Assembly: GCA_025999275.1 (NCBI GenBank)
Contig: AP024680.1
Coordinates: forward strand, 419,578 to 483,577
DNA from: Patescibacteria group bacterium
GTDB taxonomy: Bacteria; Patescibacteriota; Microgenomatia; UBA8517
Reading direction: 5' to 3'
Length of the DNA: 64,000 nucleotides
Positions within the stretch are counted from its first letter, which is position 1. Each line of letters starts with the position of its first letter. Shown here in pieces: positions 1-64,000 of the stretch. The notes below the pieces were generated by a model. It worked only from the letters and a program-made list of their open reading frames with translations. It was not told where the DNA came from and ran no database searches. A program made the translations under genes and the position numbers.

Positions 1-1001
1 ACAGTACAGTTCCGGTTTTTGTTTTTGCCTCTCGAACAGCTATGCCTGAAACTTTAATATCTTTTTGTTTTACTCTCCTTGTTTATTTGGTTTTACTTTT
101 TAGGGAGAATGGTTCTTTGTGGTTTCTCTTGCCGATTCCACTTTTGGTGGGTATTGCTGGTCTTTCAAAGCCTACAGGTTTTTTAATTGTTCTTTTTGCT
201 GTATTCTTTATTTTTTGGAGCTTTTATCAAAGAAAAGATATAAAGAAAGCTGTTTCTTATAGTTTATTAATATTTTTTTTAACACTGCCTTTTGTGTCTT
301 TTTATTTTTGGTGGGGATACCATTTTGATTGGGATATCTTTTTGCAAATAAATTCTATTCAATCATCTCGTCCTGTTGGTTTTGGAAGTCTTGCTTGGTT
401 TTTTATAACCCCTTCTTATGATACTGTTATTCTTCGTGATAGTTGGTTTGTTTTTGCCTTGTTGTCAGTAGCGTTTTTTATTTTTAAGGGGGTTAAAGGG
501 GATAGATTCGTGGTTTTAATGGCTTTTGTTTTTTGGGTTTTGGTTGTTATGATTTCTGGTGGAGAAAATGATTTGTTGGCTTGGTACCGTTTTCCATCTT
601 ATCCATTTTTATCAATTATTCTATCTTGGGGTTTGGTTTATTTAGTTAAGAAAGCTAATTTCTTTACCATGTTTTTGGCAGCTGGATTGCTATTGGGTAA
701 TCGTATGCTTTTAGTTAATCCTTTCCATCCAAATATAAATCCATCAAGCTATAGAATATTAATCTTTATTTTTATGGTTTTTCCATTGCTTTATATTGTT
801 TTTAAAAAATCTTATTTTAAGAAAATTACCAGGTTTTTGATTTTAGCGATCATCTTAGTTGGCTTTTTCTTTAATGTTAAATATATTTACAACTCTTTTG
901 AACTTGCTTGCCAAAGCAGGTCTTGTGTAATAGTTGGTTCAAACTGGCTTTCTGAATTAAGAATTCCATTTTTTTGGAGGTTTTTGATAATGAATAGGTA
1001 G
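1..1001 (+). CDS. polytopic membrane protein, 5'-partial (reading frame open to window edge)
   Basis: Frame of ORF 42..1001 has no stop back to nt 3; multiple hydrophobic helices; likely C-terminal part of an upstream GT-C-like membrane protein. Confidence 0.45.
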   Translation, partial: STVPVFVFASRTAMPETLISFCFTLLVYLVLLFRENGSLWFLLPIPLLVGIAGLSKPTGFLIVLFAVFFIFWSFYQRKDIKKAVSYSLLIFFLTLPFVSFYFWWGYHFDWDIFLQINSIQSSRPVGFGSLAWFFITPSYDTVILRDSWFVFALLSVAFFIFKGVKGDRFVVLMAFVFWVLVVMISGGENDLLAWYRFPSYPFLSIILSWGLVYLVKKANFFTMFLAAGLLLGNRMLLVNPFHPNINPSSYRILIFIFMVFPLLYIVFKKSYFKKITRFLILAIILVGFFFNVKYIYNSFELACQSRSCVIVGSNWLSELRIPFFWRFLIMNR

Positions 1002-1007
1002 TAATCT

Positions 1008-2660
1008 ATGAAGATTAAATTAAATTATGAGAGCTTTTTAATAATTTTGTTTTTATTTTTCTCTTCTTTAATTACTCTAAAAAATATATTTCACCCAGGT
1101 ATTTATACGGCTCATGATATTTGGCATAACCTAGCTCGTCTAAATTATTATTTTCAATTTTTGAAAGATGGGCAGGTACCTCCTTATTTTGGTTCTAATC
1201 TCGCTTATGGTTTTGGTTATCCTTTATTTTTGTTTTCCTATCATTTGCCTTGGATTTTTGGGTCTTTTTTGATGTGGCTTGGTTTTGGTGATGTTAACAC
1301 GATTAAGTTTTTGTTTTTGTTTAGTTTTTTTCTTTCTTGCGTTTCGATGTATTATTTGGCTTTTGAGATATCGAAGAATAAATTTATTTCTTTAGTTTCT
1401 TCAATCTTGTATCTATGGGCTCCTTATAGGTTTTTTATTATCTATGTTTCAGCTGCTGTTGGCATATCTTTTACTTTTATTTTTGTGCCTCTTTTGTTTT
1501 TAGGATTAATTAAGATTTATAAGTCAGAATTTACAAAAGGATTAATTTGGATGACTGTAGGTTTAACTGGTTTAATATTGTCTCATTTTCCAACGTTGGT
1601 GGTTTTTTTGCCTTTGTTTTTACTTTTGTCTGTTTATTTCTTTTTTATGTCTTCCAAAAAAGGGCTTTTTATCAAGTTTTTATTTCTTTCTTTTGTTCTT
1701 TCTTTAGGCATATCTTCTTTTTATTTTATTCCGGCGTTTTATTATAAGGGTCTTGTTTTGGGTTTACCATCCGTTTTTCATATGGGTTTTGTAACCTTGA
1801 GACAATTAATTTATTCCAAGTGGGGCTTTGGAATTATTGTTAATTCGGCTTCAGAAAACCCGTTTTCTTTTCAGATTGGAATATCTCAGTGGTTAATATT
1901 TTTGGTTAGTTTTTTGTTTGTTTTTTTAAACAGGGGCAAATCTAAGAATTTTCCTTTAATTTTAATTTTGATTTTCATTTTTTGTTTTAATGTTTTTCTT
2001 TCAACGTCTTTATCAAAAGCTCTGTGGAGTTCTTTTATCTCAAAAACTGGTCTTGATTTTCCTTTTCGGTTTATTTATCCCAACGTCTTTATCTCAAGTC
2101 TTTTGTTTGTTTATTTAATTAGAGAGATAAAAAATGATTTTATTTACTATTTTTTCTCATTTTTGCTTTTATTTATCGCGTTTTATACCAACCGTAACCA
2201 TATTCGTCCGAATATGTTTTTATCTGAAAATGAGTTTCGTCAGTTTGTTAATTCTGAGGTAACGACCAGTACTTATGGCGAATATTTTCCCTCTTTTGTT
2301 GATTTGTCTTTGGCAAATTACAATTTTAGGGAGATGATTATGAAACAAAACAATCTTTCTTTGGTTTATGAAAACAGCACAAAAAGTGTTTATAAAGTGT
2401 CTTTAGATAATGATGGGGAGGTCGTGTTGCCAAAATATGCTTACTCCTTTATTTCTTTGTATATAAATGGCGTCCCTCATGGCTTTATGATGGGGGAGGG
2501 TGGTTTGATAACATTATCTGTTAATAGAGGTTTGCAGGAGATAGAGGTTGTTTTTAACAAGAGTTTTATAATGAAGTTATCTTTTTATATAACAGTTCTT
2601 AGCTTGTTTGTTTTTTTATTAATTCTTTGGAAGAATATAAAAAGAAATTATGAAATATAG
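1008..2660 (+). CDS. polytopic membrane protein with extracytoplasmic C-terminal domain and terminal TM helix (YfhO-like architecture)
   Basis: approximately 12 TM helices then soluble stretch '...VVLPKYAYSFISLYINGVPHG...' then final TM helix; same topology as the YfhO at 12686-14974. Confidence 0.4.
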   Translation: MKIKLNYESFLIILFLFFSSLITLKNIFHPGIYTAHDIWHNLARLNYYFQFLKDGQVPPYFGSNLAYGFGYPLFLFSYHLPWIFGSFLMWLGFGDVNTIKFLFLFSFFLSCVSMYYLAFEISKNKFISLVSSILYLWAPYRFFIIYVSAAVGISFTFIFVPLLFLGLIKIYKSEFTKGLIWMTVGLTGLILSHFPTLVVFLPLFLLLSVYFFFMSSKKGLFIKFLFLSFVLSLGISSFYFIPAFYYKGLVLGLPSVFHMGFVTLRQLIYSKWGFGIIVNSASENPFSFQIGISQWLIFLVSFLFVFLNRGKSKNFPLILILIFIFCFNVFLSTSLSKALWSSFISKTGLDFPFRFIYPNVFISSLLFVYLIREIKNDFIYYFFSFLLLFIAFYTNRNHIRPNMFLSENEFRQFVNSEVTTSTYGEYFPSFVDLSLANYNFREMIMKQNNLSLVYENSTKSVYKVSLDNDGEVVLPKYAYSFISLYINGVPHGFMMGEGGLITLSVNRGLQEIEVVFNKSFIMKLSFYITVLSLFVFLLILWKNIKRNYEI

Positions 2661-4290
2661 AATAACTCTTATTTTAATTATTATAATTTCCTTTTTTCTA
2701 AGATTTTATAAAGTCACAGAGGTTCCTCCTTCTTTAAATTGGGATGAGGTTTCAATAGGTTATAATGCCTATTCTATTCTAAAGACTGGCAAAGATGAGT
2801 GGAATGAGTTCCTACCCTTACATTTCAAGTCCTATGGAGAGTATAAACTTCCTGCTCAAATTTATTTTTCTATTCCAGCAATTGCCATTTTTGGTCTGAA
2901 TGATTTTTCTGTGAGAATTACACCTGTAGTTTATGGGACATTAACCATTATTTTTCTCTATTTTCTTGCTCTGGAGGTATCAAAATCAAAGGCCATAGCC
3001 CTAATTAGTTCGTTCTTTTTGGCTGTTTCTCCTTGGCATATTCAACTGACTCGTGCTTCTTTTGAATCGTCTTTTGCATTGATGTGGGTTATTTTGGGTA
3101 TGATTTATTTAGTTAAAGGATTTAAAAAAAGAAAATTTTTTATTTTTTCAGCTTTGTTTTTTGCCCTTTCAATGTATACCTACAACTCTGCTCGTGGTTT
3201 TGTTCCTATCTTTATCTTAACTCTAATTCCCTTTTATCTTAGAGATTTTTTGAGGGAAAAGAGAGCAAGTCTTTTTTCAGGTTTTTTGTTTTTGATATTA
3301 ATTTTACCGATTTTTAATTTCTTGTTATTTGGGGAAGGAGAGGCTCGTTATAAATTGGTCAGTGTTACTGATGAAGCAGGGCTTATTCCAAGAATTGAGG
3401 AGAAAAGAAATTTTTCTAATCTACCCCCATTTTTAAAAAGACTTTTTTATAACAGGTACACTTTTATAAGTTATTATATTGCCAGGAATTATTTAGCCCA
3501 TTTTACACCGGATTTTCTTTTTATTAATGGAGCTGGACACAAACAACACCATCCTCAGGGTATAGGGCAGTTGTATTGGATTCAGGCACCATTCTTGCTT
3601 TTGGGATTTTACCTTTTGTTTAAGAATAAAAACAAATATAGATGGATTTTAATTTTATGGCTTTTAACCGCTTTTATACCAGTTTCACTAACCCGCGATA
3701 GCATACCTCATGCTTTGAGAACTTTAAACGCCGCTCCGGTTTATCAAATAGTAACTGCTATAGGTATTTACTATTCTTTTTTTTATTTGTTTAAAAAAGA
3801 TCTTACTACTTACTACTTTCTACTTGCTACTATTGTTTTTGTTTTTCTTTACCAATTTATCAAATATCAGATTTATTTTTATAAACAGTATCCAGTTTTA
3901 TATTCTCGGGATTGGCAGTATGGTAATAAGGAGGCAGTTTATTTTATTAAAGAGCACTATCATGATTATGATTTAATTGTTTTTACTCGTGAGTATGGGG
4001 AGCCTCATATGTTTACATTGTTTTATCTAAATTATCCGCCTGAAAAGTTTCAAAATGATAAAAACTTGGTTCGTTTTGAGACTTTTGATTGGGTTAGGGT
4101 TTTGAGATTTGATAAGTTTTATTTTCCTGATCTTGGAGATGAAGGAACAAAGGTTGAGTATATAAGAAAAGAATTTCCAAATAAGAAGATCTTATTTATA
4201 GCAACTCCTAGTGAGACCCCTTCTGGCCAGGAGATTTTATATAGTATTGATTTCCTTAATGGCAGTCGTGCTTTTAATATTTTCGAATGA
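2650..4290 (+). CDS. GT-C fold membrane glycosyltransferase, PMT/ArnT (GT39/GT83, PMT_2)-like, paralog 1 of tandem array
   Basis: N-terminal 'RFYKVTEVPPSLNWDEVSIGYNAYSILKTGKDEWNEFLPLHF' acidic DE loop motif typical of PMT/ArnT GT-C enzymes; approx 10 TM helices; C-terminal soluble domain with 'WQYG' motif; 11-nt overlap with upstream gene. Confidence 0.75.
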   Translation: MKYRITLILIIIISFFLRFYKVTEVPPSLNWDEVSIGYNAYSILKTGKDEWNEFLPLHFKSYGEYKLPAQIYFSIPAIAIFGLNDFSVRITPVVYGTLTIIFLYFLALEVSKSKAIALISSFFLAVSPWHIQLTRASFESSFALMWVILGMIYLVKGFKKRKFFIFSALFFALSMYTYNSARGFVPIFILTLIPFYLRDFLREKRASLFSGFLFLILILPIFNFLLFGEGEARYKLVSVTDEAGLIPRIEEKRNFSNLPPFLKRLFYNRYTFISYYIARNYLAHFTPDFLFINGAGHKQHHPQGIGQLYWIQAPFLLLGFYLLFKNKNKYRWILILWLLTAFIPVSLTRDSIPHALRTLNAAPVYQIVTAIGIYYSFFYLFKKDLTTYYFLLATIVFVFLYQFIKYQIYFYKQYPVLYSRDWQYGNKEAVYFIKEHYHDYDLIVFTREYGEPHMFTLFYLNYPPEKFQNDKNLVRFETFDWVRVLRFDKFYFPDLGDEGTKVEYIRKEFPNKKILFIATPSETPSGQEILYSIDFLNGSRAFNIFE

Positions 4291-5849
4291 AAAACAAGTT
4301 TCTTTTTTTATTTCTGATTTCAATTTTTGTTTTTAGCAGGCTTTATAAAATTAGTCAGATCCCATCATCTGTCTATTGGGACGAAGCCTCGATTGGTTAT
4401 AATGCATACTCGATTTTAAAAACAGGTAGGGATGAATGGGGTGAATTTATGCCACTTCATTTTAGAGCATTTGGTGAGTTTAAACTTCCTGTTTATATTT
4501 ATTCAACTGTTCCTTTTGTCCATTTTTTCGGCTTAAATGAGGTTTCAGTTCGAATGCCTTCCTTTTTTTATTCCCTTTTTAGTTTATTAATTATTTTTGC
4601 TTTGGTTAAAACAGTTTTTGAAAGTGAATCTTTGGCTTTTTTGTCTGCTTTTCTTTTTACTGTTTTACCTTGGGATTTTATTTTTTCAAGAACTGGTTAT
4701 GAAGCATCTTGTGGTCTTTTCTTTTTTCTTCTCTCGCTTTTGATTTGGTTTTTATTCAAACCTTTTGATCTTAAAATCAAAAGATCTTTTGGAAAAAAGA
4801 TTTTATTTCTGCTTGTTTATTTATTTTCTTTAATTTTTTCTATATATTCATATAACTCTTTTCGTTTTTGGTCGCCTTTGTCTTTTGTTTTCCTTCTAAC
4901 TGCCAGTTTAATTAAACAAATTGGAAATATTAAGTATAAATTGATTTTCTCTTTAATATCTTTTCTTATAATATCTTTTTCTTTTTATCCTATTTATCGC
5001 CTTTACAAATTTGATTATGGTTCAAGCAGGTTCCAGGCCGTTTCTCTTCAAGGGAATTTTAAAGAAAAAACTTATTCTTTTGTCAAAAACTATCTTTCTC
5101 ATTTTTCTTTTGATTTTTTGTTCTTAAATGGTGATTCTAATTTACGAAGCCAAATGCCTGGCTTTGGAGAGATTTATGTTTTGAGTTTGCCATTTATTGT
5201 TTTGGGCTTTTTGTATTTATTAAGAAGAAAAGACGAATTTTCTTCGATTATTATTTTTTTGCTTTTGATTTCACCCATTCCAGCAAGCCTGACTAAAGAA
5301 TCACCGCATTCACTAAGATCAATTCTTTTAGCTTTTGTCTTTCCGGTTTTGATTTCTCTTGGAATTTATAGTTTTATTTCTGTCTTTGGTAGACAGAAAA
5401 AATTTGTTTTATCAATTATAGTCTTTTCTTATCTTTTGTTCTTTGGCTTTTATTACAGCAGTTTTATCAGAAATTATAACAATATTTCTTCTTCAGAGTG
5501 GCAATATTTGTATAAGGAGGTTTTTGTAAATAGGCGAGAAGTTGTTGAAAGAGCCAATAAAGTGATAGTTTCTGATTCTTATGGGCAGCCTTATATTTTT
5601 GCTCTTTTCTATAATGAATTTAGTCCTGAGGAATTTAGAAAGACTGTAAGATATAACTCTCCTGACAAATGGGGTTTTTCAACAGTTTATTCTTTTGATA
5701 AATTTGTATTTAAGAAAGTGGATTATCAAGATTTAGAAAAGGGTTCTATTATTTTTTCTGATGAAGAGATATTGGGAAAAGATAACAGCTTAATTGATAA
5801 GATTGTTAGTAGAGATGGAAAAGATTTGCTTTTTGTATATAAAATTTGA
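4287..5849 (+). CDS. GT-C fold membrane glycosyltransferase, PMT/ArnT-like, paralog 2
   Basis: 'RLYKISQIPSSVYWDEASIGYNAYSILKTGRDEWGEFMPLHF'; ATGA start/stop overlap with paralog 1; C-terminal 'SSEWQYLYKE'. Confidence 0.75.
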   Translation: MKNKFLFLFLISIFVFSRLYKISQIPSSVYWDEASIGYNAYSILKTGRDEWGEFMPLHFRAFGEFKLPVYIYSTVPFVHFFGLNEVSVRMPSFFYSLFSLLIIFALVKTVFESESLAFLSAFLFTVLPWDFIFSRTGYEASCGLFFFLLSLLIWFLFKPFDLKIKRSFGKKILFLLVYLFSLIFSIYSYNSFRFWSPLSFVFLLTASLIKQIGNIKYKLIFSLISFLIISFSFYPIYRLYKFDYGSSRFQAVSLQGNFKEKTYSFVKNYLSHFSFDFLFLNGDSNLRSQMPGFGEIYVLSLPFIVLGFLYLLRRKDEFSSIIIFLLLISPIPASLTKESPHSLRSILLAFVFPVLISLGIYSFISVFGRQKKFVLSIIVFSYLLFFGFYYSSFIRNYNNISSSEWQYLYKEVFVNRREVVERANKVIVSDSYGQPYIFALFYNEFSPEEFRKTVRYNSPDKWGFSTVYSFDKFVFKKVDYQDLEKGSIIFSDEEILGKDNSLIDKIVSRDGKDLLFVYKI

Positions 5850-7450
5850 TTATGAATAGATTAGCTTCTTTTTTGTTTTTGATAATTTTGTTGCTGGGGG
5901 CTTTTTTAAGATTTTATAAACTCGATTCTATTCCACCTTCTCTTAATTGGGATGAAACTGCAGCTGCTTACAATGCTTATACGATCAAAAACTGGGCAAA
6001 GGACGAGTGGGGTAAAACTTTACCTTTAGTGTTTACTTCTTTTCGCGATGATAAAAGACCTATTCATATTTATATAACTTCTATGTTTTTTAATTTATTT
6101 GGAGCTACTGATTTTTCTGCTCGCTTTCCATCTGCTCTTATTGGTTTCTTGATGATTCCTTTGTTTTTTTTATTCGGCAAGCTTTATTTTGGTAGTGATT
6201 TGGCAGGGCTTTTTTCTGCATTTGCTATTGCTTTTTCAAGTTATGATATTCATTATTCCAGGGGGTTGTGGGAAGCTCATTTTGCACTTTTCTTTTTTGT
6301 TTTGGGTTTAGTGTTGTTTAGGGCGGGTTTGACTAGGAAAGGAAGGGAAGCGCTTGTTCCGTTGGCTTATTTCTCTTTTGGATTGTCTCTTTTTTCTTAT
6401 CATTCAGCTTTGGTTGTTGTTCCACCAATGGTTTTTATTCTAACTTTATTTTTTCTTAAGGATCTTTTGAAGATACTCAATTCTTTTTCGTTTGGCATGT
6501 TTATTTTTATCTTTTTTATAAGTCTGCTTTTTTTTGAACCAAGGCTTTTGGGAATAGCAAGGATTAATCAAAATAAGTTGCCTAAAGAAACTGTAGAAAA
6601 GACTTATATTTTCCAAAAAACAGGTAACCATCTTTTGGGACAACTTGAGATTATGATCCCTAAGTACAAGGATTATTTTTCTTATCAATATCTTTTTGAG
6701 GAAGGGAATAAATCACCCCGAGCAAGTATGAATTATGGGGGGAAGTTTTCAAAAACAGTATTTTTTTTGGCAATAATTGGATTAATTTTCCTGATTGCAA
6801 AGGGTAACTTTAAAATTTTTCTTTTAATTCTTTTTTGGTTTTTATTAGCGCCGTTGCCAGCAGTATTTTCAAGTGGAGAGCCACATGCTACAAGAGCAAT
6901 TTTTATGCTTGGTCCTCCTCAAATTTTGGCTGGGTTTGGTTTTTTTAAGATCTGGCAATTTTTGAGAGCTAGTTCCCTGAGGTTTGTTCTTGTTTTGTTG
7001 ATATTGGTGTTTTTTGCCAAAGATAGAGCTCTTCAAATTTTAAATTACTTTGATCGTTATGATAAAGACTACCCTATAGAGTGGCAATATGGTATGAAGC
7101 ATGTGGTTGATATTGTAAGAGACTCTAAATACAAGAAAGTTTATGTAGATATAGTTCGCCAGCAACCTTATATTTTCTTTCTTTGGTATAACAAAGTGCC
7201 TTTGCCTGAGTTTTTGTCGACTGTAAAGTATGATTATTCTTCTTCCTCCAGTTTTAACACGGTTTTTTCTTTTGATAAATATCAATTTGGCGGTTGGGAT
7301 TGGGTAGAGAGTGCTCCTCTTGATAATGTAGCCTATGTTGTTGAACCCTATAAATATACCGGTTTAAGAAGAAGGACTGACTTTCTAAATGTTAACTTGG
7401 TAAAATATCCAAGTGGGGCAGAGGCTTTTTATGTTGTTTCAGTTTATTAA
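5846..7450 (+). CDS. GT-C fold membrane glycosyltransferase, PMT/ArnT-like, paralog 3
   Basis: 'RFYKLDSIPPSLNWDETAAAYNAYTI'; ATGA overlap with paralog 2; C-terminal 'PIEWQYGMKHV'. Confidence 0.75.
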   Translation: MIMNRLASFLFLIILLLGAFLRFYKLDSIPPSLNWDETAAAYNAYTIKNWAKDEWGKTLPLVFTSFRDDKRPIHIYITSMFFNLFGATDFSARFPSALIGFLMIPLFFLFGKLYFGSDLAGLFSAFAIAFSSYDIHYSRGLWEAHFALFFFVLGLVLFRAGLTRKGREALVPLAYFSFGLSLFSYHSALVVVPPMVFILTLFFLKDLLKILNSFSFGMFIFIFFISLLFFEPRLLGIARINQNKLPKETVEKTYIFQKTGNHLLGQLEIMIPKYKDYFSYQYLFEEGNKSPRASMNYGGKFSKTVFFLAIIGLIFLIAKGNFKIFLLILFWFLLAPLPAVFSSGEPHATRAIFMLGPPQILAGFGFFKIWQFLRASSLRFVLVLLILVFFAKDRALQILNYFDRYDKDYPIEWQYGMKHVVDIVRDSKYKKVYVDIVRQQPYIFFLWYNKVPLPEFLSTVKYDYSSSSSFNTVFSFDKYQFGGWDWVESAPLDNVAYVVEPYKYTGLRRRTDFLNVNLVKYPSGAEAFYVVSVY

Positions 7451-7456: not shown

Positions 7457-8317
7457 ATGAGCAAGCTTTCTGTAGTTTTGGCAACATATAACGAAGAGAA
7501 TAATTTAGGTAGATGCCTTGGTGCAGTTAAAGAAATTGCGGATGAGATAGTTGTTGTTGATGGTTCTTCGACTGATAAGACTGTTGAAATAGCTAAAAAA
7601 TATAAAGCTCGTGTTTTAGTTGTTGATAATCCGCCAATCTTTCATATTAATAAACAGAAAGCCCTTGATATGGCCAGATATCCCTGGATTCTGCAGCTTG
7701 ATGCTGATGAAGTTGTATCAAAAGAACTTGCAGAAGAGGTGAGAAAAATAATTAAGATGAGTGATGAGGAAATTGATAATTATCAAAAGAATCTTCCTGA
7801 AAGGGATCTTTTTTTGAGACACCAGTCTTTGCTTGAAAAAAGGGATGGTAAGTTTGGTAATAAAGGTGAGTATGCAGGCTTTTTTATTCCAAGAAGAAAT
7901 TATTTTTTGGGTAAATTCTTAAGGTTTGGTGGTGTTTATCCTGATGGGGTAATTAGATTGGTTAAGAAAGGCAAGGCGTATTTTCCTTGTAAAAGTGTTC
8001 ATGAACAGATTGTAATTGATGGTAGGGTTGGTTGGCTTGCTAATCCACTTTTGCATTATGACTCCCCAACTTTTAAAAGATATCTTGAAAGAAATTCTCG
8101 TTATATCGATTTAATAGTGAAGGATCTAAAGGATAAAAAAGTGGGTAAAAATTTATTTGAGTTTTTAAATTATTTTTTCTTTAAGCCTGTCTGGTGGTTT
8201 TTCTTAACACAAATAAGACACAAAGGAATTCTTGACGGTTGGCAGGGTGTTGTTTTTAGTTTCTTTTCAGCGCTTAGATTTCCAAGAGCTTATTTTAGGT
8301 ATCTTGCAAATAAATAG
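7457..8317 (+). CDS. glycosyltransferase family 2 (GT-A fold)
   Basis: 'LSVVLATYNEENNL...VVVDGSSTDKT...LQLDADEV' canonical GT2 N-terminal and DXD motifs. Confidence 0.85.
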   Translation: MSKLSVVLATYNEENNLGRCLGAVKEIADEIVVVDGSSTDKTVEIAKKYKARVLVVDNPPIFHINKQKALDMARYPWILQLDADEVVSKELAEEVRKIIKMSDEEIDNYQKNLPERDLFLRHQSLLEKRDGKFGNKGEYAGFFIPRRNYFLGKFLRFGGVYPDGVIRLVKKGKAYFPCKSVHEQIVIDGRVGWLANPLLHYDSPTFKRYLERNSRYIDLIVKDLKDKKVGKNLFEFLNYFFFKPVWWFFLTQIRHKGILDGWQGVVFSFFSALRFPRAYFRYLANK

Positions 8318-17722: not shown

Positions 17723-17728
17723 CTTCTT

Positions 17729-56346: not shown

Positions 56347-56948
56347 AAAGCTTTTTTAAAGATAAAAATGGGAAGCCTCTCTCTTGGGGTGAGGCTATCA
56401 AAAAAATTTATAATCGTTTTCTGAATATTTTTCTTGATTTTGAGCTTATGCTTCTTCGTTGGGTGGGCCATATTCCTCTCCATTCAGTTAGAAGGTTTTT
56501 TTATTCTTTAGCTGGCATTAAGATGGGTAGGGGTTCTACTATTCATATGTGGGCAAACTTTTTCAATCCAAAGAATATCTCTATTGGCGAGGATACTATC
56601 ATTGGGGATCATGTTTTTATAGATGGGAGAGATAAAGTTAAAATTGGCAGTCACACCGATATTGCCTCCTCTGTCATGATTTATAACTCTGAACACGATT
56701 TGGGGGATGAAGAGTTTAAAGCACGAGAGGAACCAGTTGAAATAGGAGATTATTGTTTTATTGGTCCAAGATCAATTATTTTGCCGGGAGTAAAGATTGG
56801 CAAAGGGGCGGTTGTTGCAGCCGGTGCTGTTGTTACAAAAGATGTTGGTAATTTGGAAATTGTTGGTGGTGTACCTGCCAAGGTTATTGGTGTAAGGAAG
56901 GTTAAAAAACTCAATTATCGTTTGGGTAGGGCTCGCCTTTTCCAATAA
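56343..56948 (+). CDS. left-handed beta-helix (hexapeptide-repeat) sugar O-/N-acetyltransferase
   Basis: 'IGDHVFIDGRDKVKIGSHTDIASSVMIYNSEHD...IGDYCFIGPRSIILPGVKIGKGAVVAAGAVV'. Confidence 0.85.
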   Translation: MKSFFKDKNGKPLSWGEAIKKIYNRFLNIFLDFELMLLRWVGHIPLHSVRRFFYSLAGIKMGRGSTIHMWANFFNPKNISIGEDTIIGDHVFIDGRDKVKIGSHTDIASSVMIYNSEHDLGDEEFKAREEPVEIGDYCFIGPRSIILPGVKIGKGAVVAAGAVVTKDVGNLEIVGGVPAKVIGVRKVKKLNYRLGRARLFQ

Positions 56949-56949
56949 T

Positions 56950-57513
56950 ATGCTGCGTTTTTTAAAAGTCTTGCTTTCCTTTTTTTCTATAATTTTCCTT
57001 TTGTATTTAATTTGGCCTTTTGAGCCCAAAAGAATAGATGATTTTTCTGCACTTCCTCAATCAACAAAGTCTGACCTAACTGGGGATACCATTGAAGTTC
57101 CCAATGTTGCTGCTTATTTTTCTAACAACTACCGAAATTTTGTCACTAAGTACTATCGCAATGAATTTCAGTACAAAACAAAGTTTCCTTTTCCTCCCCT
57201 GACCTTAAATCATCCTCCAGAATATGCTTTTAATTATATTAAAGATCAAACTCAAAGTACTTATCTTGAGGAATATGTTTATCCGCTAAGAGGTTCGTTG
57301 TTTGTTAATGGTCTTGAGCCATTTGATGAAAAAACAAAGAAGCCTAGATACTCTGCTGCTAGTCATTTTTCAGCTGGTGGGATGCTTTATGAAACGAAAG
57401 TTACACTAAGGTATTACCCAACAAAGATAATAAACAGGATTGGGGTTTGGTCAGGAATTAATTTGATAGTGGTTTTTTTGTGGAAATTATCACGTAAATT
57501 GGTAAATGGTTGA
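56950..57513 (+). CDS. hypothetical membrane-anchored/secreted protein
   Basis: N-terminal hydrophobic helix then soluble domain. Confidence 0.35.
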   Translation: MLRFLKVLLSFFSIIFLLYLIWPFEPKRIDDFSALPQSTKSDLTGDTIEVPNVAAYFSNNYRNFVTKYYRNEFQYKTKFPFPPLTLNHPPEYAFNYIKDQTQSTYLEEYVYPLRGSLFVNGLEPFDEKTKKPRYSAASHFSAGGMLYETKVTLRYYPTKIINRIGVWSGINLIVVFLWKLSRKLVNG

Positions 57514-58399
57514 AATACTCGTAGTTGTATTAAATTACAATACTAAAGTTTTGACAGAAAAGTGCTTAAAAAGCATAGTGGATAAAAAGTGGAAAAGAAA
57601 AATTAAGGTGGTAGTGGTTGATAATGCTTCAACGGATGGTTCTTTGGAATACCTTAAAAAGAAATTTAAGACTGTTTCTTTTATTGTCTCTAAATCCAAT
57701 TTGGGTTTTGCTGGTGGAAATAACTTGGCACTTAAGAGGCACTTTAAAGATGCTGAATTTTGTTTAATTCTTAATTCTGATACAGAAGTCTTAGAAGGTT
57801 CTCTTGATAGTCTTTATGATTTTGCTAAATCTGGTTTTGATATTGCTTCTCCAAAGCTTATTAATAAAGATGGTTCTTTTCAGCCAAATGGGGGAGAATT
57901 GCCATATCTTTGGCCTTTATTTTTATGGCTTTCTGGACTTGATGATATATTTCGTCGATTTATAAATATTCCTTCTTATCAAGAGAGAAGTTTGTCTTAC
58001 TATAAAAAGGGTAGGGTTGGTTGGGTTTCGGGAACTGCAATGCTTGTTAAAAATGAGGTTTTTGATAGGATAGGCTTTTTTGATGATAATATTTTTATGT
58101 ATGGGGAAGATGTTGACTTTTGCTTTAGGGCAAGAAAAGCTGGATTTAAGATAGGATGGACAGATAGTGCAGAAGTTATTCATCTTGGGGGTGGTAGTCT
58201 TGATAGACCGCAATTTAGACAGTGGTTGGGTGAATTTAAGGGCCTTTTGTATTTTTACAAAAAACATTTTGGGAAAATGGCTAAAGTTGGTCTTTTAATC
58301 TTAATTTATATTTTTGTTTTCTTTCGTATAATTGCTTTTTGGTTTATTGGTAAGAAGGAATATGCTAAAACATATGTCAAAATACTTAGAGAGATTTGA
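57506..58399 (+). CDS. glycosyltransferase family 2 (rhamnosyltransferase-like)
   Basis: 'VVVLNYNTKVLTEKCLKSI...VVVVDNASTDGS...LILNSDTEV'. Confidence 0.85.
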   Translation: MVEILVVVLNYNTKVLTEKCLKSIVDKKWKRKIKVVVVDNASTDGSLEYLKKKFKTVSFIVSKSNLGFAGGNNLALKRHFKDAEFCLILNSDTEVLEGSLDSLYDFAKSGFDIASPKLINKDGSFQPNGGELPYLWPLFLWLSGLDDIFRRFINIPSYQERSLSYYKKGRVGWVSGTAMLVKNEVFDRIGFFDDNIFMYGEDVDFCFRARKAGFKIGWTDSAEVIHLGGGSLDRPQFRQWLGEFKGLLYFYKKHFGKMAKVGLLILIYIFVFFRIIAFWFIGKKEYAKTYVKILREI

Positions 58400-59828
58400 G
58401 GAGTTTTTATTTTGGTTTTTAATTACAATTTTATCGTTTGTAATTTTGTACCAAAAGTTTCCTTTTATTGAGATACCTAAAAGCGTTGTTTCAATAAGAC
58501 TTGAGGATTTTTTGATTTTGACTGCAGTTATTTTTTGGTCATTTTATGTTTTGGTTTCGGGAAAATTTAAAGATTTGGTTAAAGACAATTTATTTCAAGC
58601 CGTTGTTATTTTTTGGTTTGTTGGATTGGTTTCATCTTATTCTGCTATTTCGCTTATCCAGACTGTTTCTTTTTCTTCTGTTGTTTTTCATTTCTTAAGG
58701 AGAGTTGAACTTTTGATTCTTATATTTTTAGGAATGAGTATAAAGATAGACAAAAGGAGGTTTAATTTATTTCTTGCAACTTTGTTTTCGTCTTTATTGT
58801 TGGTCAATATTTATGGTGTAGGCCAACTTTATTTTCATTTTCCTAGTATATCAACCACAAATACTGAGCTTGCCAAAGGTAAGATAGTTTACTTGACTCA
58901 GGGTCAGAGAATAAATTCAACCTTTGCTGGTCATTATGATCTGGCTGTTTTTTTGGTGATGTGTATGATTTTGGTTTCTGCTTTTGTTATTTACCACTGG
59001 CCGTTTAAAGGTTTTTCTTTGCAAAAAAAGAGAAATAATATTTTTCTTTTCTCTATTTTTATATTTCTTTTAGCGTTTTCTTTTTATGTTTTTATGTTGA
59101 CTGCTGCTCGGCTTTCTTTTATTGCACTTGTTTTTGGTATATTGGCGCTTCTTGTCCTCTTGGGTAAAAAGAAGCTTATTTTTGTTGCATCTTTGATATT
59201 CTTGCTTGTTCTTGCCTATCCATCTCAGCTTAGAGATCGTTTTATTTTGACCATCAAGGTAAATATAAATAAGGAGTGGAATTCTTTTAATGCTTTAAAT
59301 AAAGAGCAAGAGCAAAGAAGTCAACTTAATATTCCAACTCTTCCATCTGGAAGTAAAAGACTTGATGTAGGTGAGGGTTTGCCTGCTGATGTTGTACCCG
59401 GAGAGCCTGTTAATATTGCTGAAGTGGCAGTTTATCGCTCTTTTGAGATAAGGACAAAAATCGAATGGCCAAGAGCTTGGCGCGCTTTTTTGAGAAACCC
59501 AATTTTGGGAAGTGGTTATTCTTCTGTTGATTTGGCAACTGATAATGATCTTTTAAGACTTTTAGCTGAGGTTGGAATTTTGGGGTTGTTAAGTTTTTAT
59601 TTGCTTATTTTTGCAATAATCAAAAGGCTCTTTTATTTTTGGCAGAATTCAAAAGGCTTTTTAAAGTACTATATTTCTGGATTAATAGCAATGCTTTTGG
59701 CATTTATAGTTAATAGTTTCTTAATCGATGTTTTTGAGGCAAGTAAGGTTGCTTCTTTACTTTGGCTTTTAATTGGAGTAACTTTTGGTTATTTGAATTA
59801 TAATTCTGGAAAGAAAACATATGTCTAA
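58374..59828 (+). CDS. O-antigen ligase / Wzy-type polymerase family membrane protein (Wzy_C domain)
   Basis: polytopic; 'RAWRAFLRNPILGSGYSSVDLATDNDLLRLLAEVGILGLLSFYLLI' matches O-antigen ligase domain; start ambiguous (58362 or 58374). Confidence 0.65.
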   Translation: MSKYLERFEEFLFWFLITILSFVILYQKFPFIEIPKSVVSIRLEDFLILTAVIFWSFYVLVSGKFKDLVKDNLFQAVVIFWFVGLVSSYSAISLIQTVSFSSVVFHFLRRVELLILIFLGMSIKIDKRRFNLFLATLFSSLLLVNIYGVGQLYFHFPSISTTNTELAKGKIVYLTQGQRINSTFAGHYDLAVFLVMCMILVSAFVIYHWPFKGFSLQKKRNNIFLFSIFIFLLAFSFYVFMLTAARLSFIALVFGILALLVLLGKKKLIFVASLIFLLVLAYPSQLRDRFILTIKVNINKEWNSFNALNKEQEQRSQLNIPTLPSGSKRLDVGEGLPADVVPGEPVNIAEVAVYRSFEIRTKIEWPRAWRAFLRNPILGSGYSSVDLATDNDLLRLLAEVGILGLLSFYLLIFAIIKRLFYFWQNSKGFLKYYISGLIAMLLAFIVNSFLIDVFEASKVASLLWLLIGVTFGYLNYNSGKKTYV

Positions 59829-61272
59829 AGTCAAAAAATTTATTTTTAGTGAACTGTTTTGGTTGTTTTTAATTTTGATTTTTGGTTTTTTGGTTAGAAT
59901 TTATAAGATTAATAACCCCTTGGCTGATTGGCATTCGTGGCGTCAAGCTGATACCTCCTCGGTCTCAAGAATTTATTTTGAAGAAGGAATAAACATACTT
60001 TATCCTCGATATTATGATATTTCAAGTATTCAATCTGGTTGGTTTAATCCAAATGGATATAGATTTGTTGAGTTCCCTCTTTTTAATGTTATTCATACAG
60101 TTTTGGCAAAACTGGGAGGGCCTTTGAATTTTGAGGGGTGGGGTAGGATGACAAGTATTATCTTTTCTCTTTTTTCTGTTGTCTTTGTTTACCTACTTGG
60201 AAAAAGGTTTATTTCTCCTCTTGGGGGATTGTTATCGGCATTTTTCTTTGCCTTTTTGCCCTACAACATTTATTACTCTCGTGTTATTTTGCCAGAGCCA
60301 ATGGCAACCAGTCTTGCTTTGTTTTCAGTTGTTTTATTTGTTTGGTTTTTAGACAGAAATAAACTCTTATTCTTTTACCTTTCTTCTGTTTTTTTATCTT
60401 TGGCTGTTTTAGTTAAGCCTCATGCAATTTTTTATCTTGTGCCCATAATTCTTTTGTTTATTGAAAAATACTCTCTTGATGGAATTTTCAAGAATTCTAG
60501 GAACTTTATTAGGCTGCTTTTGTTTTTTGTTATTTTAATTTTGCCTTTTTTAGCTTGGAGGGTGTGGGTTAATCAATTTCCAGCAGGTATTCCTTTTATG
60601 AAATGGTCTTTTAATGGTGATATGATTCGTTTTCACCCAGCGTTTTGGCGTTGGATTTTTGGTGAGCGTTTGGGATATTTAATTTTGGGCGTTTACGGTG
60701 TTTTTATTTTTGGTCTGGGTATAATCTCAAGGACAAGAAAGGAAAATTTTATTCGTTTCTTTTTAGTGGGAATGTTTTTATATGTTTCTATTTTTGCCGC
60801 AGCTAATGTTAGACATGATTATTATCAGATATTTATAATTCCTTCGGTAAGTTTAGCTTTGGCACAAGGTGGGGTTTTTCTAGTTTCTGATAGAAGAGTT
60901 GGTAAGATTGGTGTTTTTGCTTTTTCTGTTTTTATGATGTTTTTTATGTCTTTTTACAAAATTAAAGATTACTATCAAATTAATCATCCGGAAATTATAG
61001 AAGCGGGTAAGGCAGTAGATGAATTAACTCCAAAAAATGCTAGAATTATAGCACCATATAATGGGGATACTGCCTTTTTATACCAGACTAAACGTTTTGG
61101 CTGGCCAGCGGTTGACAGCTCGTTTGATAAACTAATTAATGAAAGAGGAGCTAAGTTTTATGTAAGCGTGGAGAAGGAAAGCCAAGATTCTAAATTTATT
61201 AGATCTCATTTTAAGTTGATAAAGGAAACAGACAGTTATTTTATTGCAGATTTAACTCAAAAAATAAAATGA
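59821..61272 (+). CDS. GT-C fold membrane glycosyltransferase, ArnT/PMT_2-like
   Basis: 'YKINNPLADWHSWRQADTSSVSRIYFEEG'; polytopic with C-terminal soluble domain. Confidence 0.6.
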   Translation: MSKVKKFIFSELFWLFLILIFGFLVRIYKINNPLADWHSWRQADTSSVSRIYFEEGINILYPRYYDISSIQSGWFNPNGYRFVEFPLFNVIHTVLAKLGGPLNFEGWGRMTSIIFSLFSVVFVYLLGKRFISPLGGLLSAFFFAFLPYNIYYSRVILPEPMATSLALFSVVLFVWFLDRNKLLFFYLSSVFLSLAVLVKPHAIFYLVPIILLFIEKYSLDGIFKNSRNFIRLLLFFVILILPFLAWRVWVNQFPAGIPFMKWSFNGDMIRFHPAFWRWIFGERLGYLILGVYGVFIFGLGIISRTRKENFIRFFLVGMFLYVSIFAAANVRHDYYQIFIIPSVSLALAQGGVFLVSDRRVGKIGVFAFSVFMMFFMSFYKIKDYYQINHPEIIEAGKAVDELTPKNARIIAPYNGDTAFLYQTKRFGWPAVDSSFDKLINERGAKFYVSVEKESQDSKFIRSHFKLIKETDSYFIADLTQKIK

Positions 61273-62486
61273 AAATCTTAATGCTTACTCCATATCTTCC
61301 TTTTCCTCCCTCATCAGGAGGGCAAATAAGGTCTTACAACTTGATTAAACACCTATCAAAAAAACACCAAATTACTCTTTTTTCTTTAATCAAGAGTGAC
61401 GATGAAAAAAAGTATATTTTTGAACTTGAAAAATATTGTGATAAAGTTAAGGTTTTCAAGAGGTCAAAAAGCCCTTGGACAGTCAAGAATATTCTGAAGA
61501 CAGGTTTTGGTACATATCCATTTTTGGTGGTAAGAAATCATGTTGATGAAGAGAAAGATACTATGGAGAAAGAATTAAAAAAGACTCAGTATGATGTTAT
61601 TCATGCCGAGACTTTTTATGTAATGCCACATATTCCAGAGACAAAAGTTCCTGTTTTATTAGTTGACCAGACTATTGAATATTTGGTTTACAAACATTAT
61701 GTAGATGAACAGGCTCCTTTTTTCTTAAGACCTCTTTTTTCTATTGATGTTGCCAAACTTAAATATTGGGAAAAGAAATATTGGGAGAAAGCAAATAGGG
61801 TGGTGGCAGTTTCTGAGGCAGATAAGAAAGAGATGCTTAAGGTTTCGCCACAACTTAAAGTTGATGTTTTGCCAAACGGTGTCGACCTGGGTTTTTTTAA
61901 GGCAAAGAACAACTGGTCTGATAAAGAACCAAAGATTCTTTTTGTTGCCAATTTTAAGTGGTTGCAAAATACAGAAGCAGCTGAAGCCTTGCTTGATATT
62001 GTTTTCCCTTTGATATCCAAGGAATTGCCTGCGGCAAAGCTTTGGATTGTTGGGCAACATATTCCAGATAAAATTAAAAAGAGATCAGGGAAGAATATTT
62101 TGATTAGCGATCTTGATTACGATGATGAGGAAACTATAAAGAAAGCTTATTACGAATCTTCTATTTTTATATCTCCTCTAAAAGGTCCTGGTGGAACTAG
62201 ACTAAAGCATTTTGCTGCCATGGCTTCAAAATTGCCCCTTTTAACCACTTCTGTAGGGGCTGAGGGATTGGGTGCAAAAAGAAATGTAAACATTTTAGTT
62301 GAAGATGATTTTGAAAAGATGGCCAAATCAGCTGTTTTTGTTTTAAACAACCCTAAAGTAGCCAAAAGACTTGCTGAATCTGCTCGTTTATTGGTTGAGA
62401 AAAACTTTAGTTGGGAAGTTATTTCGAACAAACTCGACAAGATTTATGAGGAAACTGTAAAAAGTTCTTATGGTAAAAAATCCTAA
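61269..62486 (+). CDS. glycosyltransferase family 4 (GT-B)
   Basis: 'MKILMLTPYLPFPPSSGGQIRSYNLIKHLSKKH' Glyco_trans_4-like N-terminal domain, C-terminal GT-B domain. Confidence 0.8.
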   Translation: MKILMLTPYLPFPPSSGGQIRSYNLIKHLSKKHQITLFSLIKSDDEKKYIFELEKYCDKVKVFKRSKSPWTVKNILKTGFGTYPFLVVRNHVDEEKDTMEKELKKTQYDVIHAETFYVMPHIPETKVPVLLVDQTIEYLVYKHYVDEQAPFFLRPLFSIDVAKLKYWEKKYWEKANRVVAVSEADKKEMLKVSPQLKVDVLPNGVDLGFFKAKNNWSDKEPKILFVANFKWLQNTEAAEALLDIVFPLISKELPAAKLWIVGQHIPDKIKKRSGKNILISDLDYDDEETIKKAYYESSIFISPLKGPGGTRLKHFAAMASKLPLLTTSVGAEGLGAKRNVNILVEDDFEKMAKSAVFVLNNPKVAKRLAESARLLVEKNFSWEVISNKLDKIYEETVKSSYGKKS

Positions 62487-63393
62487 ACTTTCAATTGTAA
62501 TTTTAAATTACAATACGAAAGATTTACTTTTTGATTGTTTGTCTTCTCTTCGCCGGGTTAAGAACGAGGTTGATTTTGAGATTATTGTTATTGACAACGC
62601 CTCTTTGGATGGGAGCTCTTTAATGATTAAAACTAATTTTCCAGAGGTTTTATTGATTGAAAATAAAAGTAATCTTGGTTTTGCTGCAGGAAACAATAAA
62701 GCAAAGATGTTCGTAAAAGGTGAATATGTACTTTTTCTTAATTCTGATACTGTTGTTTATAAAGGAGCGCTTAGGCAAACAGTTAAATATTTGGATAAAA
62801 ATCCTGATGTTGGGGCTGTGAGTTGTAAGCTGGTTTTATCTGATGGAAAGCTTGATAAAGATACTAGGAGGAGTTTTATTACTCCATGGATTGGGTTAGT
62901 TCACTTGGTTTTGAGGCTTGATAGAATTTTTCCTAGATCACCCCTTTTTGGACGTTATTGGTATGGTTATATTCCAGAGGATGAAGTTCATGAGGTAGAT
63001 GCTCTCCAGGGCGCTTTTTTTATGACTAGAAAAAAAATACTGGATGATGTTGGTTGGTTTGATGAAGACTATTTTCTTGATGGAGAAGATATTGACCTTT
63101 CTTGGAAAATAAAAGAAAAAGGTTGGAGATTGGTTTATTATCCCAAAGTGAAAATACTTCATCTAAAAGGTGCTTCTAAAGGAAAATTGGTTTCTAGGAG
63201 GAGGAGAAAAATTGGTTTGAGAGAAAGAGTAAGGATAAAACTTCAAGGAGTTAGATCGATGGAGATTTTTTATCGAAAAAGACTTTGGAGAAAATATCCT
63301 ATTTGGCTTAATATCTTAGTTTTGCTTGGTATTAGATTTCTTTTATTTTTGAGGTCTATTAAGGCTTTTTTTGAATGGATTATTTTTAGGTAA
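62470..63393 (+). CDS. glycosyltransferase family 2
   Basis: 'LSIVILNYNTKDLLFDCLSSL...IIVIDNASLDGS...LFLNSDTVV'. Confidence 0.85.
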   Translation: MVKNPKLSIVILNYNTKDLLFDCLSSLRRVKNEVDFEIIVIDNASLDGSSLMIKTNFPEVLLIENKSNLGFAAGNNKAKMFVKGEYVLFLNSDTVVYKGALRQTVKYLDKNPDVGAVSCKLVLSDGKLDKDTRRSFITPWIGLVHLVLRLDRIFPRSPLFGRYWYGYIPEDEVHEVDALQGAFFMTRKKILDDVGWFDEDYFLDGEDIDLSWKIKEKGWRLVYYPKVKILHLKGASKGKLVSRRRRKIGLRERVRIKLQGVRSMEIFYRKRLWRKYPIWLNILVLLGIRFLLFLRSIKAFFEWIIFR

Positions 63394-63405
63394 AGATGAA
63401 AGTTG

Positions 63406-64000
63406 TAATAGATGCCAGACTTTATGGGCTTGAAAATGCGGGTTTGGGTAGATATCTGATAAATCTTATCAATGAGATTGCAAGAATAAAAAAACCAAAG
63501 TTTGATTATGTTGTTATTTTAAGAAAAAAGTATTTTGATAGTTTAGATTTACCTTCGAATTTTAAGAAAGTTTGTCTTGATGTCAGACACTATTCTTTTT
63601 CAGAGCAATTTTTGCTGCCATTGTTTTTGTATAAGGAAAATCCGGATTTAGTTCACTTCCCCCATTTTAATGTTCCGATTTTATATTTTGGTAAGTATGT
63701 AGTTACCATACACGATATGCTAATGCATAGGTTTAAGGGAGTATCAAGCACTACCCTGCATCCATTTCTATATTTTATTAAAAGAATTTTCTATTATTTT
63801 GTTTTTTGGAAAGCGGTTGGGTTTGCAAAGTTTATTTTTGTTCCATCAGAATTTGTTGGTGGAGAAATAGGAGAAAGATTTTCATTTTCTAACCCTAAAA
63901 TAAGGGTTATTTATGAAGGAGTGAGTAATTTATTTTTAAATGATTTTCAAAGTAAAAAACTTTTATACAAAAAATATAATCTATCTCGAGATTACATAAT
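63406..64000 (+). CDS. glycosyltransferase family 4, 3'-partial (runs off window)
   Basis: 'MKVVIDARLYGLENAGLGRYLINLINEI' GT4 N-terminus; frame open to end of window. Confidence 0.7.

Follow-up and report, generated by a model that had tools for sequence, protein, structure and literature searches.

A 64-kb Patescibacteria locus rich in GT-C glycosyltransferase genes, with a probable role in outer-face assembly of envelope glycans

Here we describe a 64-kb stretch of DNA from the hot-spring metagenome-assembled genome (MAG) KatS3mg088 (Patescibacteria), which is largely given over to glycan assembly and above all to genes for polytopic membrane glycosyltransferases of the GT-C class. This stretch, called the window at its full length, makes up ~8% of a 785,860-bp contig, has ~31% G+C and a coding density of 94%, and holds 57 complete coding sequences and one partial one, tightly packed and, with 51 of the complete ones on the plus strand, nearly all in the same orientation. 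Glycan-related genes account for ~54 kb of the 64 kb, or ~85% of the bases, and a tRNA scan and an Rfam scan of the window gave no match. An initial annotation, made from the letters alone, had remarked that there is hardly any housekeeping gene and had suggested an origin in the Candidate Phyla Radiation (CPR); both points hold, as the non-glycan genes are few and the source is a Patescibacteria MAG. The tie to an episymbiotic lifestyle that was also suggested there is conjecture. Judged by its closest relatives, the source organism is a member of the Microgenomates. Two proteins of the window match KatS3mg088_435 and KatS3mg088_455 of that MAG at 100% identity, whereas exact look-ups with 39234-40541, 61269-62486 and 62470-63393 found no entry. 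The same DNA was also assembled in three Logan contigs of run DRR290133, so that the sequence can be taken as real and independently assembled. Just left of the window lies a PMT-like GT-C open reading frame (ORF; L003, positions 1-1120), which runs off the start of that locus, and the right edge of the window cuts a GT4 gene; the locus is thus larger than the window.

The GT-C genes and their common motif

Twenty genes, together 30.2 kb or 47% of the window, are counted here as GT-C genes, 19 of them supported and one, encoding a DUF6056 protein, probable. The earlier figure of at least 13 polytopic GT-C-like proteins was therefore right in kind but too low. Support for the 19 came from Pfam, paralogy, the annotation of homologues, profile-profile comparison and predicted fold. 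In a Pfam scan of every window ORF of at least 100 aa, using Pfam's own cut-offs, 11 genes scored above the cut-off for PMT, PMT_2, YfhO or Mannosyl_trans2 (2650-4290, 5846-7450, 9514-10002, 12686-14974 on the minus strand, 16032-17318, 26871-28268, 37401-39044, 40915-42072 on the minus strand, 45739-47163, 48137-49477 and 59821-61272), and 12 polytopic genes exceed family cut-offs once the DUF6056 gene is included. Profile-profile comparison with hhalign was run on small alignments, with secondary structure left aside; as a negative control, the Wzx protein of the window reached a probability of at most 0.6% against the GT-C profiles. The 20 genes are listed below, with the motif that follows the first transmembrane helix (TM1; the ensuing loop is loop 1).

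1-1001, plus: GT-C (PMT_2), 3' part, cut by the window edge; the full 498-aa gene on Logan contig L003 carries PMT_2; loop 1 GHLDEQ (LDE)
1008-2660, plus: GT-C, YfhO/PTPS_related-like; many homologues carry PF10131 or PF09586; invariant HDxWH after TM1
2650-4290, plus: GT-C, PMT/PMT_2 (Pfam 38.5 and 37.6 bits); loop-1 WDE
4287-5849, plus: GT-C, paralogue of 2650-4290 (phmmer E 2e-75); loop-1 WDE
5846-7450, plus: GT-C, PMT_2 (Pfam 41.5 bits); loop-1 WDE
8327-9517, plus: GT-C, divergent PMT_2 (Pfam 25.3 bits, cut-off 26.1); hhalign to the 2650-4290 family 97.5%, E 9e-12
9514-11158, plus: GT-C (PMT), split into ORFs of 162 and 402 aa (Pfam PMT 51.9 bits for 9514-10002); loop-1 GDE
12686-14974, minus: GT-C, YfhO family (Pfam YfhO 70.3 bits, cut-off 28.5, two matched stretches); hhalign to the 1008-2660 family profile 96%; PGD
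16032-17318, plus: GT-C, PIG-V-like (Mannosyl_trans2, Pfam 33.0 bits); true start probably near 16131, by the L003 gene call; FDGVHY
18748-19833, plus: compact GT-C, 361 aa; some homologues carry PMT_2 and JGI names homologues PMT/ArnT-like; hhalign to the 2650-4290 family 81%; DAD...HPPL after TM1
23702-25762, plus: GT-C, family without a Pfam model, assigned by predicted fold; invariant DDHE at residues 198-201; extended at the N-terminus by a segment akin to the next gene
26871-28268, plus: GT-C, marginal PMT_2 (Pfam 26.8 bits, cut-off 26.1); hhalign 87.7%
35829-37394, plus: GT-C, divergent PMT_2 (Pfam 24.9 bits, below cut-off); hhalign to the 2650-4290 family 95.3%
37401-39044, plus: GT-C, PMT_2 (Pfam 38.9 bits)
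39234-40541, plus: DUF6056 polytopic protein, probable GT-C (Pfam 77.5 bits); VDD after TM1
40915-42072, minus: GT-C, PMT_2/PMT (Pfam 45.9 and 32.2 bits); loop-1 SDE
45739-47163, plus: GT-C, PMT_2 (Pfam 35.4 bits)
48137-49477, plus: GT-C, PMT_2 (Pfam 27.2 bits); hhalign 95.7%
52341-54176, minus: GT-C, distant paralogue of 2650-4290 (phmmer E 4e-20; hhalign between both families 100%); loop-1 DDE
59821-61272, plus: GT-C, PMT_2/PMT (Pfam 43.2 and 27.4 bits)

Most of these genes fail to find each other by phmmer, which indicates that they are old and diverse paralogues rather than recent duplicates, and they were shown to span at least eight mutually very divergent families. The predicted model of the 23702-25762 protein has Pmt2 and Pmt4 as its closest folds, at a sequence identity of ~10%. 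Searches of PDB sequences found nothing with 2650-4290 and, with the 23702-25762 family profile, only three chance-level matches to unrelated proteins (E 0.3-0.9). The DUF6056 protein is a probable GT-C on the strength of its VDD motif and topology; hhalign gave no link to the other GT-C families, whether it was run with the single sequence or with three metagenome homologues, and a PDB sequence search was without a hit.

Nearly all the GT-C proteins share one arrangement: a short N-terminus bearing Lys or Arg, TM1, and then an acidic (Asp/Glu) motif. The motif takes the several forms given above, is invariant in the alignments of two families (A1, and A2, which is the 1008-2660 alignment) and is not obvious in 8327-9517. 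By its position, this acidic motif corresponds to the catalytic-loop arrangement of GT-C enzymes, and the positive-inside rule together with homology suggests that loop 1 faces outward. A simple, crude hydropathy scan, used in place of a dedicated topology predictor, counted 6-14 transmembrane cores per protein. A Pfam PMT match and a loop-1 DE motif coincide in 2650-4290, 9514-10002, 40915-42072 and 59821-61272; no MIR domain was matched in any window protein in the Pfam scan.

One further polytopic protein, encoded next to the DDHE gene, was considered as a GT-C but is not supported as one: it has no Pfam hit, and its AlphaFold2 model (pLDDT 84.7) found no meaningful fold match in the PDB.

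25740-26738, plus: membrane protein that probably serves the GT-C encoded before it as an accessory module; 98% by hhalign (E 2e-13) against the N-terminus of 23702-25762

It is the N-terminal transmembrane module of this protein that is homologous to the extension of the adjacent GT-C. The family, for which there is no Pfam model, comprises 249 cluster representatives, and in one related locus (L027) its member adjoins a 26871-28268-like gene.

The donor synthase and its recurrence in related loci

The GT-C genes are accompanied by a candidate source of lipid-linked monosaccharides. The initial annotation had named three GT2 enzymes of the GtrB/DPM1 type, one of them paired with DUF2304. The pair stands, a second enzyme is a weak candidate, and the third finds no support.

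50708-51385, minus: polyprenyl-phosphate-sugar synthase of the PpgS/DPM1/ArnC/GtrB type (NCBIfam PpgS 173 bits, full length)
50314-50667, minus: small DUF2304 membrane protein that partners the synthase (Pfam 59.5 bits), 40 bases from it
23020-23727, plus: GT2, weak candidate for a polyprenyl-phosphate hexose synthase of the DPM1 type; its end overlaps with the beginning of GT-C 23702-25762
49474-50313, plus: GT2 with two C-terminal transmembrane helices (Pfam 118 bits); PDB matches are generic GT2 N-terminal domains
22124-22960, plus: GT2 (Pfam 108 bits)

Residues 7-220 of the 50708-51385 protein align to positions 2-217 of the 226 positions of the PpgS model, and its top PDB matches are dolichyl-phosphate-mannose synthase (DPMS), ArnC and GtrB. 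Its 173 bits fall below the equivalog cut-off of 370, so that we consider it an enzyme of the same type as PpgS and leave its sugar specificity unassigned. Small partners of the DUF2304 type stimulate the synthase in PpgS/Rv3632 of M. tuberculosis and in GacI/GacJ of S. pyogenes. The 23020-23727 protein matches a haloarchaeal dolichyl-phosphate hexose transferase weakly, over most of its length (NCBIfam E 3.5e-7), and found GtrB in the PDB at only E 4e-4. The last two enzymes of the list gave generic GT2 matches only and are not supported as members of the GtrB/DPM1 type.

To place this arrangement among related genomes, we scanned the GTDB species representatives with the 1008-2660 family and obtained 67 loci, whose 21-kb neighbourhoods were searched by phmmer with the window proteins as queries; the counts thus cover families represented in the window. 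The source genome itself was not among the hits. The loci come mostly from Microgenomates; lineages could be named for about half of them and include Davies-, Woese-, Gottesman-, Ames-, Blackburn-, Pace- and Levybacteria. Many neighbourhoods hold 6-11 GT-C paralogues each. Of the 67 loci, 57 carry a synthase of the 50708-51385 type; among the 14 that were inspected for gene order, 13 have it beside the 1008-2660 orthologue. In part of the loci, synthase, DUF2304 protein and a 22124-22960-type GT2 recur as a trio. Such neighbourhoods of synthase and GT-C genes show the arrangement of donor and users expected for glycosylation at the outer face, and the pairing of a GtrB/DPM1-type donor with GT-C users that had been proposed for the window is borne out by both the synthase/DUF2304 pair and the 57 neighbourhoods.

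Gene order is conserved as well. The recurring order is PIG-V-like gene, GT2, three PMT-like paralogues and 1008-2660 orthologue; in the inspected loci, a GT2 of the 7457-8317 type, a GT4 of the 15020-16147 type and the PIG-V-like gene are likewise found in similar order. In the window, the members of the PMT-like triplet (2650-7450) overlap one another by a few bases at stop and start codons, and all three keep the DE of loop 1. They have clear one-to-one orthologues in several relatives (L012, L013, L014, L017 and L034; Daviesbacteria, for example), and by analogy with yeast Pmt1-Pmt2 the triplet might form a hetero-oligomer. A relative with a 59%-identical 1008-2660 orthologue keeps the order PMT_2 gene, 1008-2660 orthologue, PMT-like triplet, GT2, Y1 transposase, SDR, GT4, PIG-V-like gene and Gmd; it is without 8327-11158 and the YfhO gene and carries further GT-C genes upstream. 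Another Microgenomates genome, more distant, contains just three GT-C genes and a single GT2, amid housekeeping genes.

Judged by these comparisons, GT-C arrays with an embedded polyprenyl-phosphate-sugar synthase are widespread among the related genomes examined, and the present genome is, in terms of gene content, a shared core with many extra modules. The density of GT-C genes, initially described as far above that of typical O-antigen clusters, is not exceptional within the lineage, where relatives reach 9-11 per 21 kb. To our knowledge, it is nonetheless far above that in the O-antigen clusters of other bacteria.

Further glycan genes, non-glycan genes and signs of flux

Pfam confirmed the other gene classes listed for the window at the outset, namely six GT4 genes (including the partial gene 63396-64000), eight GT2 genes and single genes for Wzx, Wzy_C, Gmd, an FdtA-like protein, a DegT aminotransferase and an LbH acetyltransferase, together with three methyltransferase genes.

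7457-8317, plus: GT2, partner gene kept in related arrays (Pfam 72.9 bits); best window match for 53 ORFs in related loci
15020-16147, plus: GT4 (Pfam); homologues in 35 related loci, one of which, in L053, abuts a PIG-V-like gene
17657-18742, plus: GDP-mannose 4,6-dehydratase, Gmd (Pfam 385.7 bits; NCBIfam gmd 368 bits); start probably 17729
28275-29237, plus: soluble 320-aa protein with an EDD motif, possibly GT-A; no family hit
29248-30057, plus: S-adenosylmethionine (SAM) methyltransferase (Pfam Methyltransf_11)
30064-31038, plus: weak GT8-like protein (Pfam 22.2 bits, cut-off 24.3)
31035-31439, plus: FdtA-like cupin, sugar 3,4-ketoisomerase family (Pfam 135.5 bits)
31426-32535, plus: DegT/DnrJ/EryC1 sugar aminotransferase (Pfam 375 bits; NCBIfam PseC/LegC/WecE-like)
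32529-33524, plus: pyridoxal-phosphate enzyme, threonine-synthase-like (Pfam PALP 89.8 bits; NCBIfam)
33723-34898, plus: SAM methyltransferase (Pfam); the Logan gene call starts ~200 bases upstream (458 aa)
34906-35757, plus: FkbM-family methyltransferase (Pfam 84.5 bits; NCBIfam 110 bits)
43170-44438, plus: Wzx-type MOP flippase (Pfam Polysacc_synt 87.7 bits)
44918-45763, plus: GT2 (Pfam 45.2 bits)
47164-48240, plus: GT4 (Pfam 117 bits)
54101-55210, plus: GT4 (Pfam 101.7 bits)
55207-56346, plus: GT4 (Pfam 144.8 bits)
56343-56948, plus: hexapeptide-repeat acetyltransferase, WcaF-like, for O-acetylation (Pfam; NCBIfam WcaF family 99.5 bits)
57506-58399, plus: GT2 (Pfam 59.4 bits)
58332-59828, plus: Wzy_C protein, O-antigen ligase/polymerase-like, polytopic (Pfam 47.9 bits)
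61269-62486, plus: GT4 (Pfam)
62470-63393, plus: GT2 (Pfam 75.2 bits)
63396-64000, plus: GT4, 5' part, runs off the window (Pfam Glyco_transf_4 37.7 bits)

Sugar-tailoring operons do not usually include a threonine-synthase-like enzyme; the one encoded here, flanked by the genes for the DegT aminotransferase and a methyltransferase, might produce a substituent derived from an amino acid, or transfer one. No priming phosphoglycosyltransferase (Bac_transf, Glycos_transf_4) and no Wzz was matched among the window ORFs of at least 100 aa, though such genes may lie elsewhere in the genome. There was also no match to the GtrA flippase family in the window, and the two small membrane ORFs 21734-22093 and 56950-57513 matched no family even at E values up to 10.

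Besides these two ORFs, the non-glycan genes comprise an SDR gene, a gene for a coiled-coil protein and the following:

11189-11881, minus: IS200-like Y1 transposase
20509-21531, minus: 340-aa protein with a HELGH (HExxH-type) motif; no family hit
42527-43120 and 44481-44870: NYN-domain protein and 23S-rRNA-IVS/bAvd-like four-helix protein, flanking the Wzx gene
51468-52339: DUF6922 protein (97 aa) and AbiEii nucleotidyltransferase, a toxin-antitoxin pair inserted between glycan genes

In L005, where the neighbouring GT-C orthologue is 59% identical, a Y1 transposase gene occupies the same place, between GT2 and SDR; the gene looks like a long-resident or domesticated one, not a fresh insertion.

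The two ORFs 9514-10002 and 9950-11158 match the N- and C-terminal halves of 2650-4290 by phmmer and thus represent one split gene. The split goes back to a surplus T, which makes the run at 9957-9964 a T8; in the near-identical strain L004 (SRR23829991, from another sample and differing at 2 of 2,832 positions), the run is T7 and the gene is intact, with 547 aa. We considered phase variation at this tract and set it aside, since the AT-rich window has 35 T8-type runs and this one is not special. On/off switching is no more likely than a frameshift of recent date or a mistake in the assembly of one sample.

The base composition shows a strong and persistent strand asymmetry: every 2-kb bin of the window has a positive GC skew, and AT skew falls as low as -0.39, which may reflect the coding of membrane proteins rich in Phe, Leu and Ile or a replication bias. 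Unusual genome-wide GC skew is on record for a published Microgenomates genome (PMC7143001).

A proposed outer-face pathway and its relation to known systems

The reading of the locus as one for lipid-linked glycosylation outside the membrane is well supported by gene content and synteny. In the pathway that we propose, nucleotide sugars would be made and tailored in the cytoplasm, where Gmd would yield a 4-keto-6-deoxy intermediate for modification by the isomerase, the aminotransferase, the methyltransferases and the O-acetyltransferase. GT4 and GT2 enzymes would build a lipid-linked oligosaccharide on the inner face, Wzx would flip it, and the Wzy_C protein would polymerise or ligate it. 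In parallel, the synthase/DUF2304 pair, and perhaps also the 23020-23727 enzyme, would charge polyprenyl phosphate with single sugars; that the GT-C enzymes use such polyprenyl-phosphate-linked sugars is suggested by context, through the presence of the synthase in 57 of the 67 related neighbourhoods. After flipping, about 20 GT-C enzymes would use the lipid-linked sugars on the outer face, each forming one linkage, and would together elongate, branch or decorate a surface glycoconjugate. Its main acceptor would be a wall-linked polysaccharide or lipoglycan built by a GT-C relay, with protein O-glycosylation as a possible side activity. We favour a polymer or lipoglycan acceptor because the combination of GT4 enzymes, a DPM1-like synthase and many GT-C enzymes resembles mycobacterial assembly, while the YfhO-like members recall the glycosylation of teichoic acids. 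The logic of known polymer and lipoglycan pathways is matched by the members of the YfhO and PIG-V types and by the combination of GT4, DPM1-like and GT-C enzymes. Taken as a whole, we consider this explanation probable: a locus of 64 kb or more, of which the window is an inner part, would assemble cell-envelope glycans by an outer-face GT-C relay, with a polymer or lipoglycan as the favoured acceptor.

Several points weigh against it. Activity, donor sugar and acceptor are all deduced from sequence. There is a single clear donor synthase for about 20 GT-C enzymes, and, with no priming enzyme and no GtrA in the window, both the Wzx/Wzy branch and the flipping of monosaccharide carriers are incomplete there. 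One GT-C gene is frameshifted, and the toxin-antitoxin pair and the transposase-like gene suggest that part of the locus may be accessory or in flux. In addition, protein glycosylation stays a live option because several members score with the Pfam PMT model for protein O-mannosyltransferases.

The signs of flux lend themselves to a different account, which we deem possible, though clearly less probable. The window could be a variable glycan island, in which independent systems (a Wzx/Wzy heteropolysaccharide, GT-C modifiers of side chains, sugar tailoring) were gathered by duplication and horizontal transfer, driven by selection for a varied surface (through phages or host recognition, for instance), and some of them would now be redundant or decaying. 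The 59%-identical relative that is without 8327-11158 and the YfhO gene speaks for such an island, as do the GT-C gene that is frameshifted here and intact in a near-identical strain, the DUF6922/AbiEii, NYN, 23S-IVS-like and Y1 transposase genes interspersed among the glycan genes, and the divergence of most GT-C members beyond mutual detection by phmmer. Homologues of 23702-25762 in Leptospira and Bdellovibrionales point the same way. However, a core made up of the triplet, the 1008-2660 orthologue, the synthase, GT2, GT4 and the PIG-V-like gene recurs in similar order, as expected for one ancestral pathway, and the window is tightly packed, nearly single-stranded and coding over 94% of its length. 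For the right-hand half of the window, the island account is compatible with the explanation that we prefer.

That the GT-C array serves mainly protein O-glycosylation appears unlikely. PMT-like enzymes would then transfer sugars from polyprenyl phosphate to Ser/Thr of S-layer proteins, pilins or adhesins, with the paralogues representing target or linkage specificities. The PMT scores behind this idea are offset by the fact that PMT_2 is common to lipid and glycan transferases of the ArnT type and carries no acceptor information. Furthermore, neither a MIR domain nor a Ser/Thr-rich target gene was seen in the locus, the presence of YfhO-like and PIG-V-like enzymes suggests that the acceptors are polymers or lipids, and 20 different enzymes exceed the needs of known protein O-glycosylation systems. 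As for the polytopic proteins being transporters or unrelated membrane proteins that mimic GT-C motifs, an idea nourished by seven polytopic ORFs that had no Pfam hit at first pass, it is ruled out for the 19 genes and hardly credible overall, since twelve lie above Pfam cut-offs, the others are tied to them by paralogy, homologue annotation, profile-profile comparison and fold, the Wzx control stayed at or below 0.6%, and only 25740-26738 is left without an assignment and 39234-40541 unproven.

Within the preferred outer-face pathway, we tentatively extend the argument to the shared core, which consists of the PMT-like triplet, the YfhO/PTPS-like gene, the DPM1-type synthase (joined by DUF2304 in some of the loci), GT2, GT4 and the PIG-V-like GT-C. 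It is conceivable, if rather doubtful, that this core is an ancestral, class-wide pathway of the Microgenomates, which builds the main envelope glycopolymer or lipoglycan almost wholly on the outer face by GT-C relay. Lineage-specific add-on modules, such as the right-hand 40 kb here, would in that case diversify the surface.

The conserved core array, with its clear donor synthase, offers an experimental handle on the envelope glycans of the mostly uncultured Patescibacteria. A tiny genome that spends at least 8% of a 786-kb contig on one glycan locus, 30 kb of it on GT-C genes, makes a considerable investment, from which we conclude that the cell surface must matter greatly to the organism. 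Nothing about the locus is categorically new, as all its components belong to known families; its scale is unusual, and similar arrays are found again in many of the related genomes examined. The GT-C family with the DDHE motif, which is without a Pfam model, and its associated membrane module add new families. In the searchable literature we found nothing specific on GT-C arrays in CPR, Patescibacteria or Microgenomates, the only related remark being that one Microgenomates genome has 29 glycosyltransferase genes (PMC7143001).

Four known systems invite comparison. The GT39 protein O-mannosyltransferases (yeast Pmt1/2/4, actinobacterial Pmt) share with the proteins of the window the PMT model score, the DE of loop 1 and, for 23702-25762, a fold close to Pmt2/Pmt4, but sequence identity is ~10%, and the MIR domain of the eukaryotic members was not found here. 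Wzx/Wzy clusters for O-antigen or capsule likewise combine Wzx, Wzy_C, GT2, GT4, Gmd, tailoring of the FdtA/DegT type and an acetyltransferase. They are normally without GT-C enzymes other than Wzy and WaaL, whereas GT-C genes make up half of the present locus, in which no priming phosphoglycosyltransferase or chain-length regulator was found within the window.

Extracytoplasmic glycan modification is carried out by the three-component systems GtrA/GtrB/GtrC, CsbB/GtcA/YfhO (teichoic acids) and GacI/GacJ/GacK/GacL (group A carbohydrate). As in these, a GT2 polyprenyl-phosphate-sugar synthase, here with a GacJ-like DUF2304 partner, would serve GT-C enzymes acting on the outer face, a YfhO-family member among them. 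Each of these modules has one GT-C, while about 20 share one clear synthase here, and no flippase of the GtrA/GtcA type was found in the window.

The broadest likeness is to the assembly of phosphatidylinositol mannosides, lipomannan (LM), lipoarabinomannan (LAM) and arabinogalactan in mycobacteria. There, cytoplasmic GT4 enzymes (PimA/PimB') act before many outer-face GT-C enzymes (PimE, MptA-C, EmbA-C, AftA-D), which are fed by a DPM1-type synthase, Ppm1; PpgS (Rv3631) with Rv3632, the supplier of a GT-C enzyme, is mirrored by the synthase/DUF2304 pair of the window. No orthologue of Emb, Aft, Mpt or PimE is detectable, the host is a Patescibacterium rather than an actinobacterium, and the genes lie together in one locus of a ~0.8-Mb genome, where those of the mycobacterial systems are spread over 4.4 Mb. 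If the shared core is indeed class-wide, it would represent an independent counterpart of the logic of mycobacterial LM/LAM and arabinogalactan assembly, in an ultrasmall bacterium with little lipid biosynthesis.

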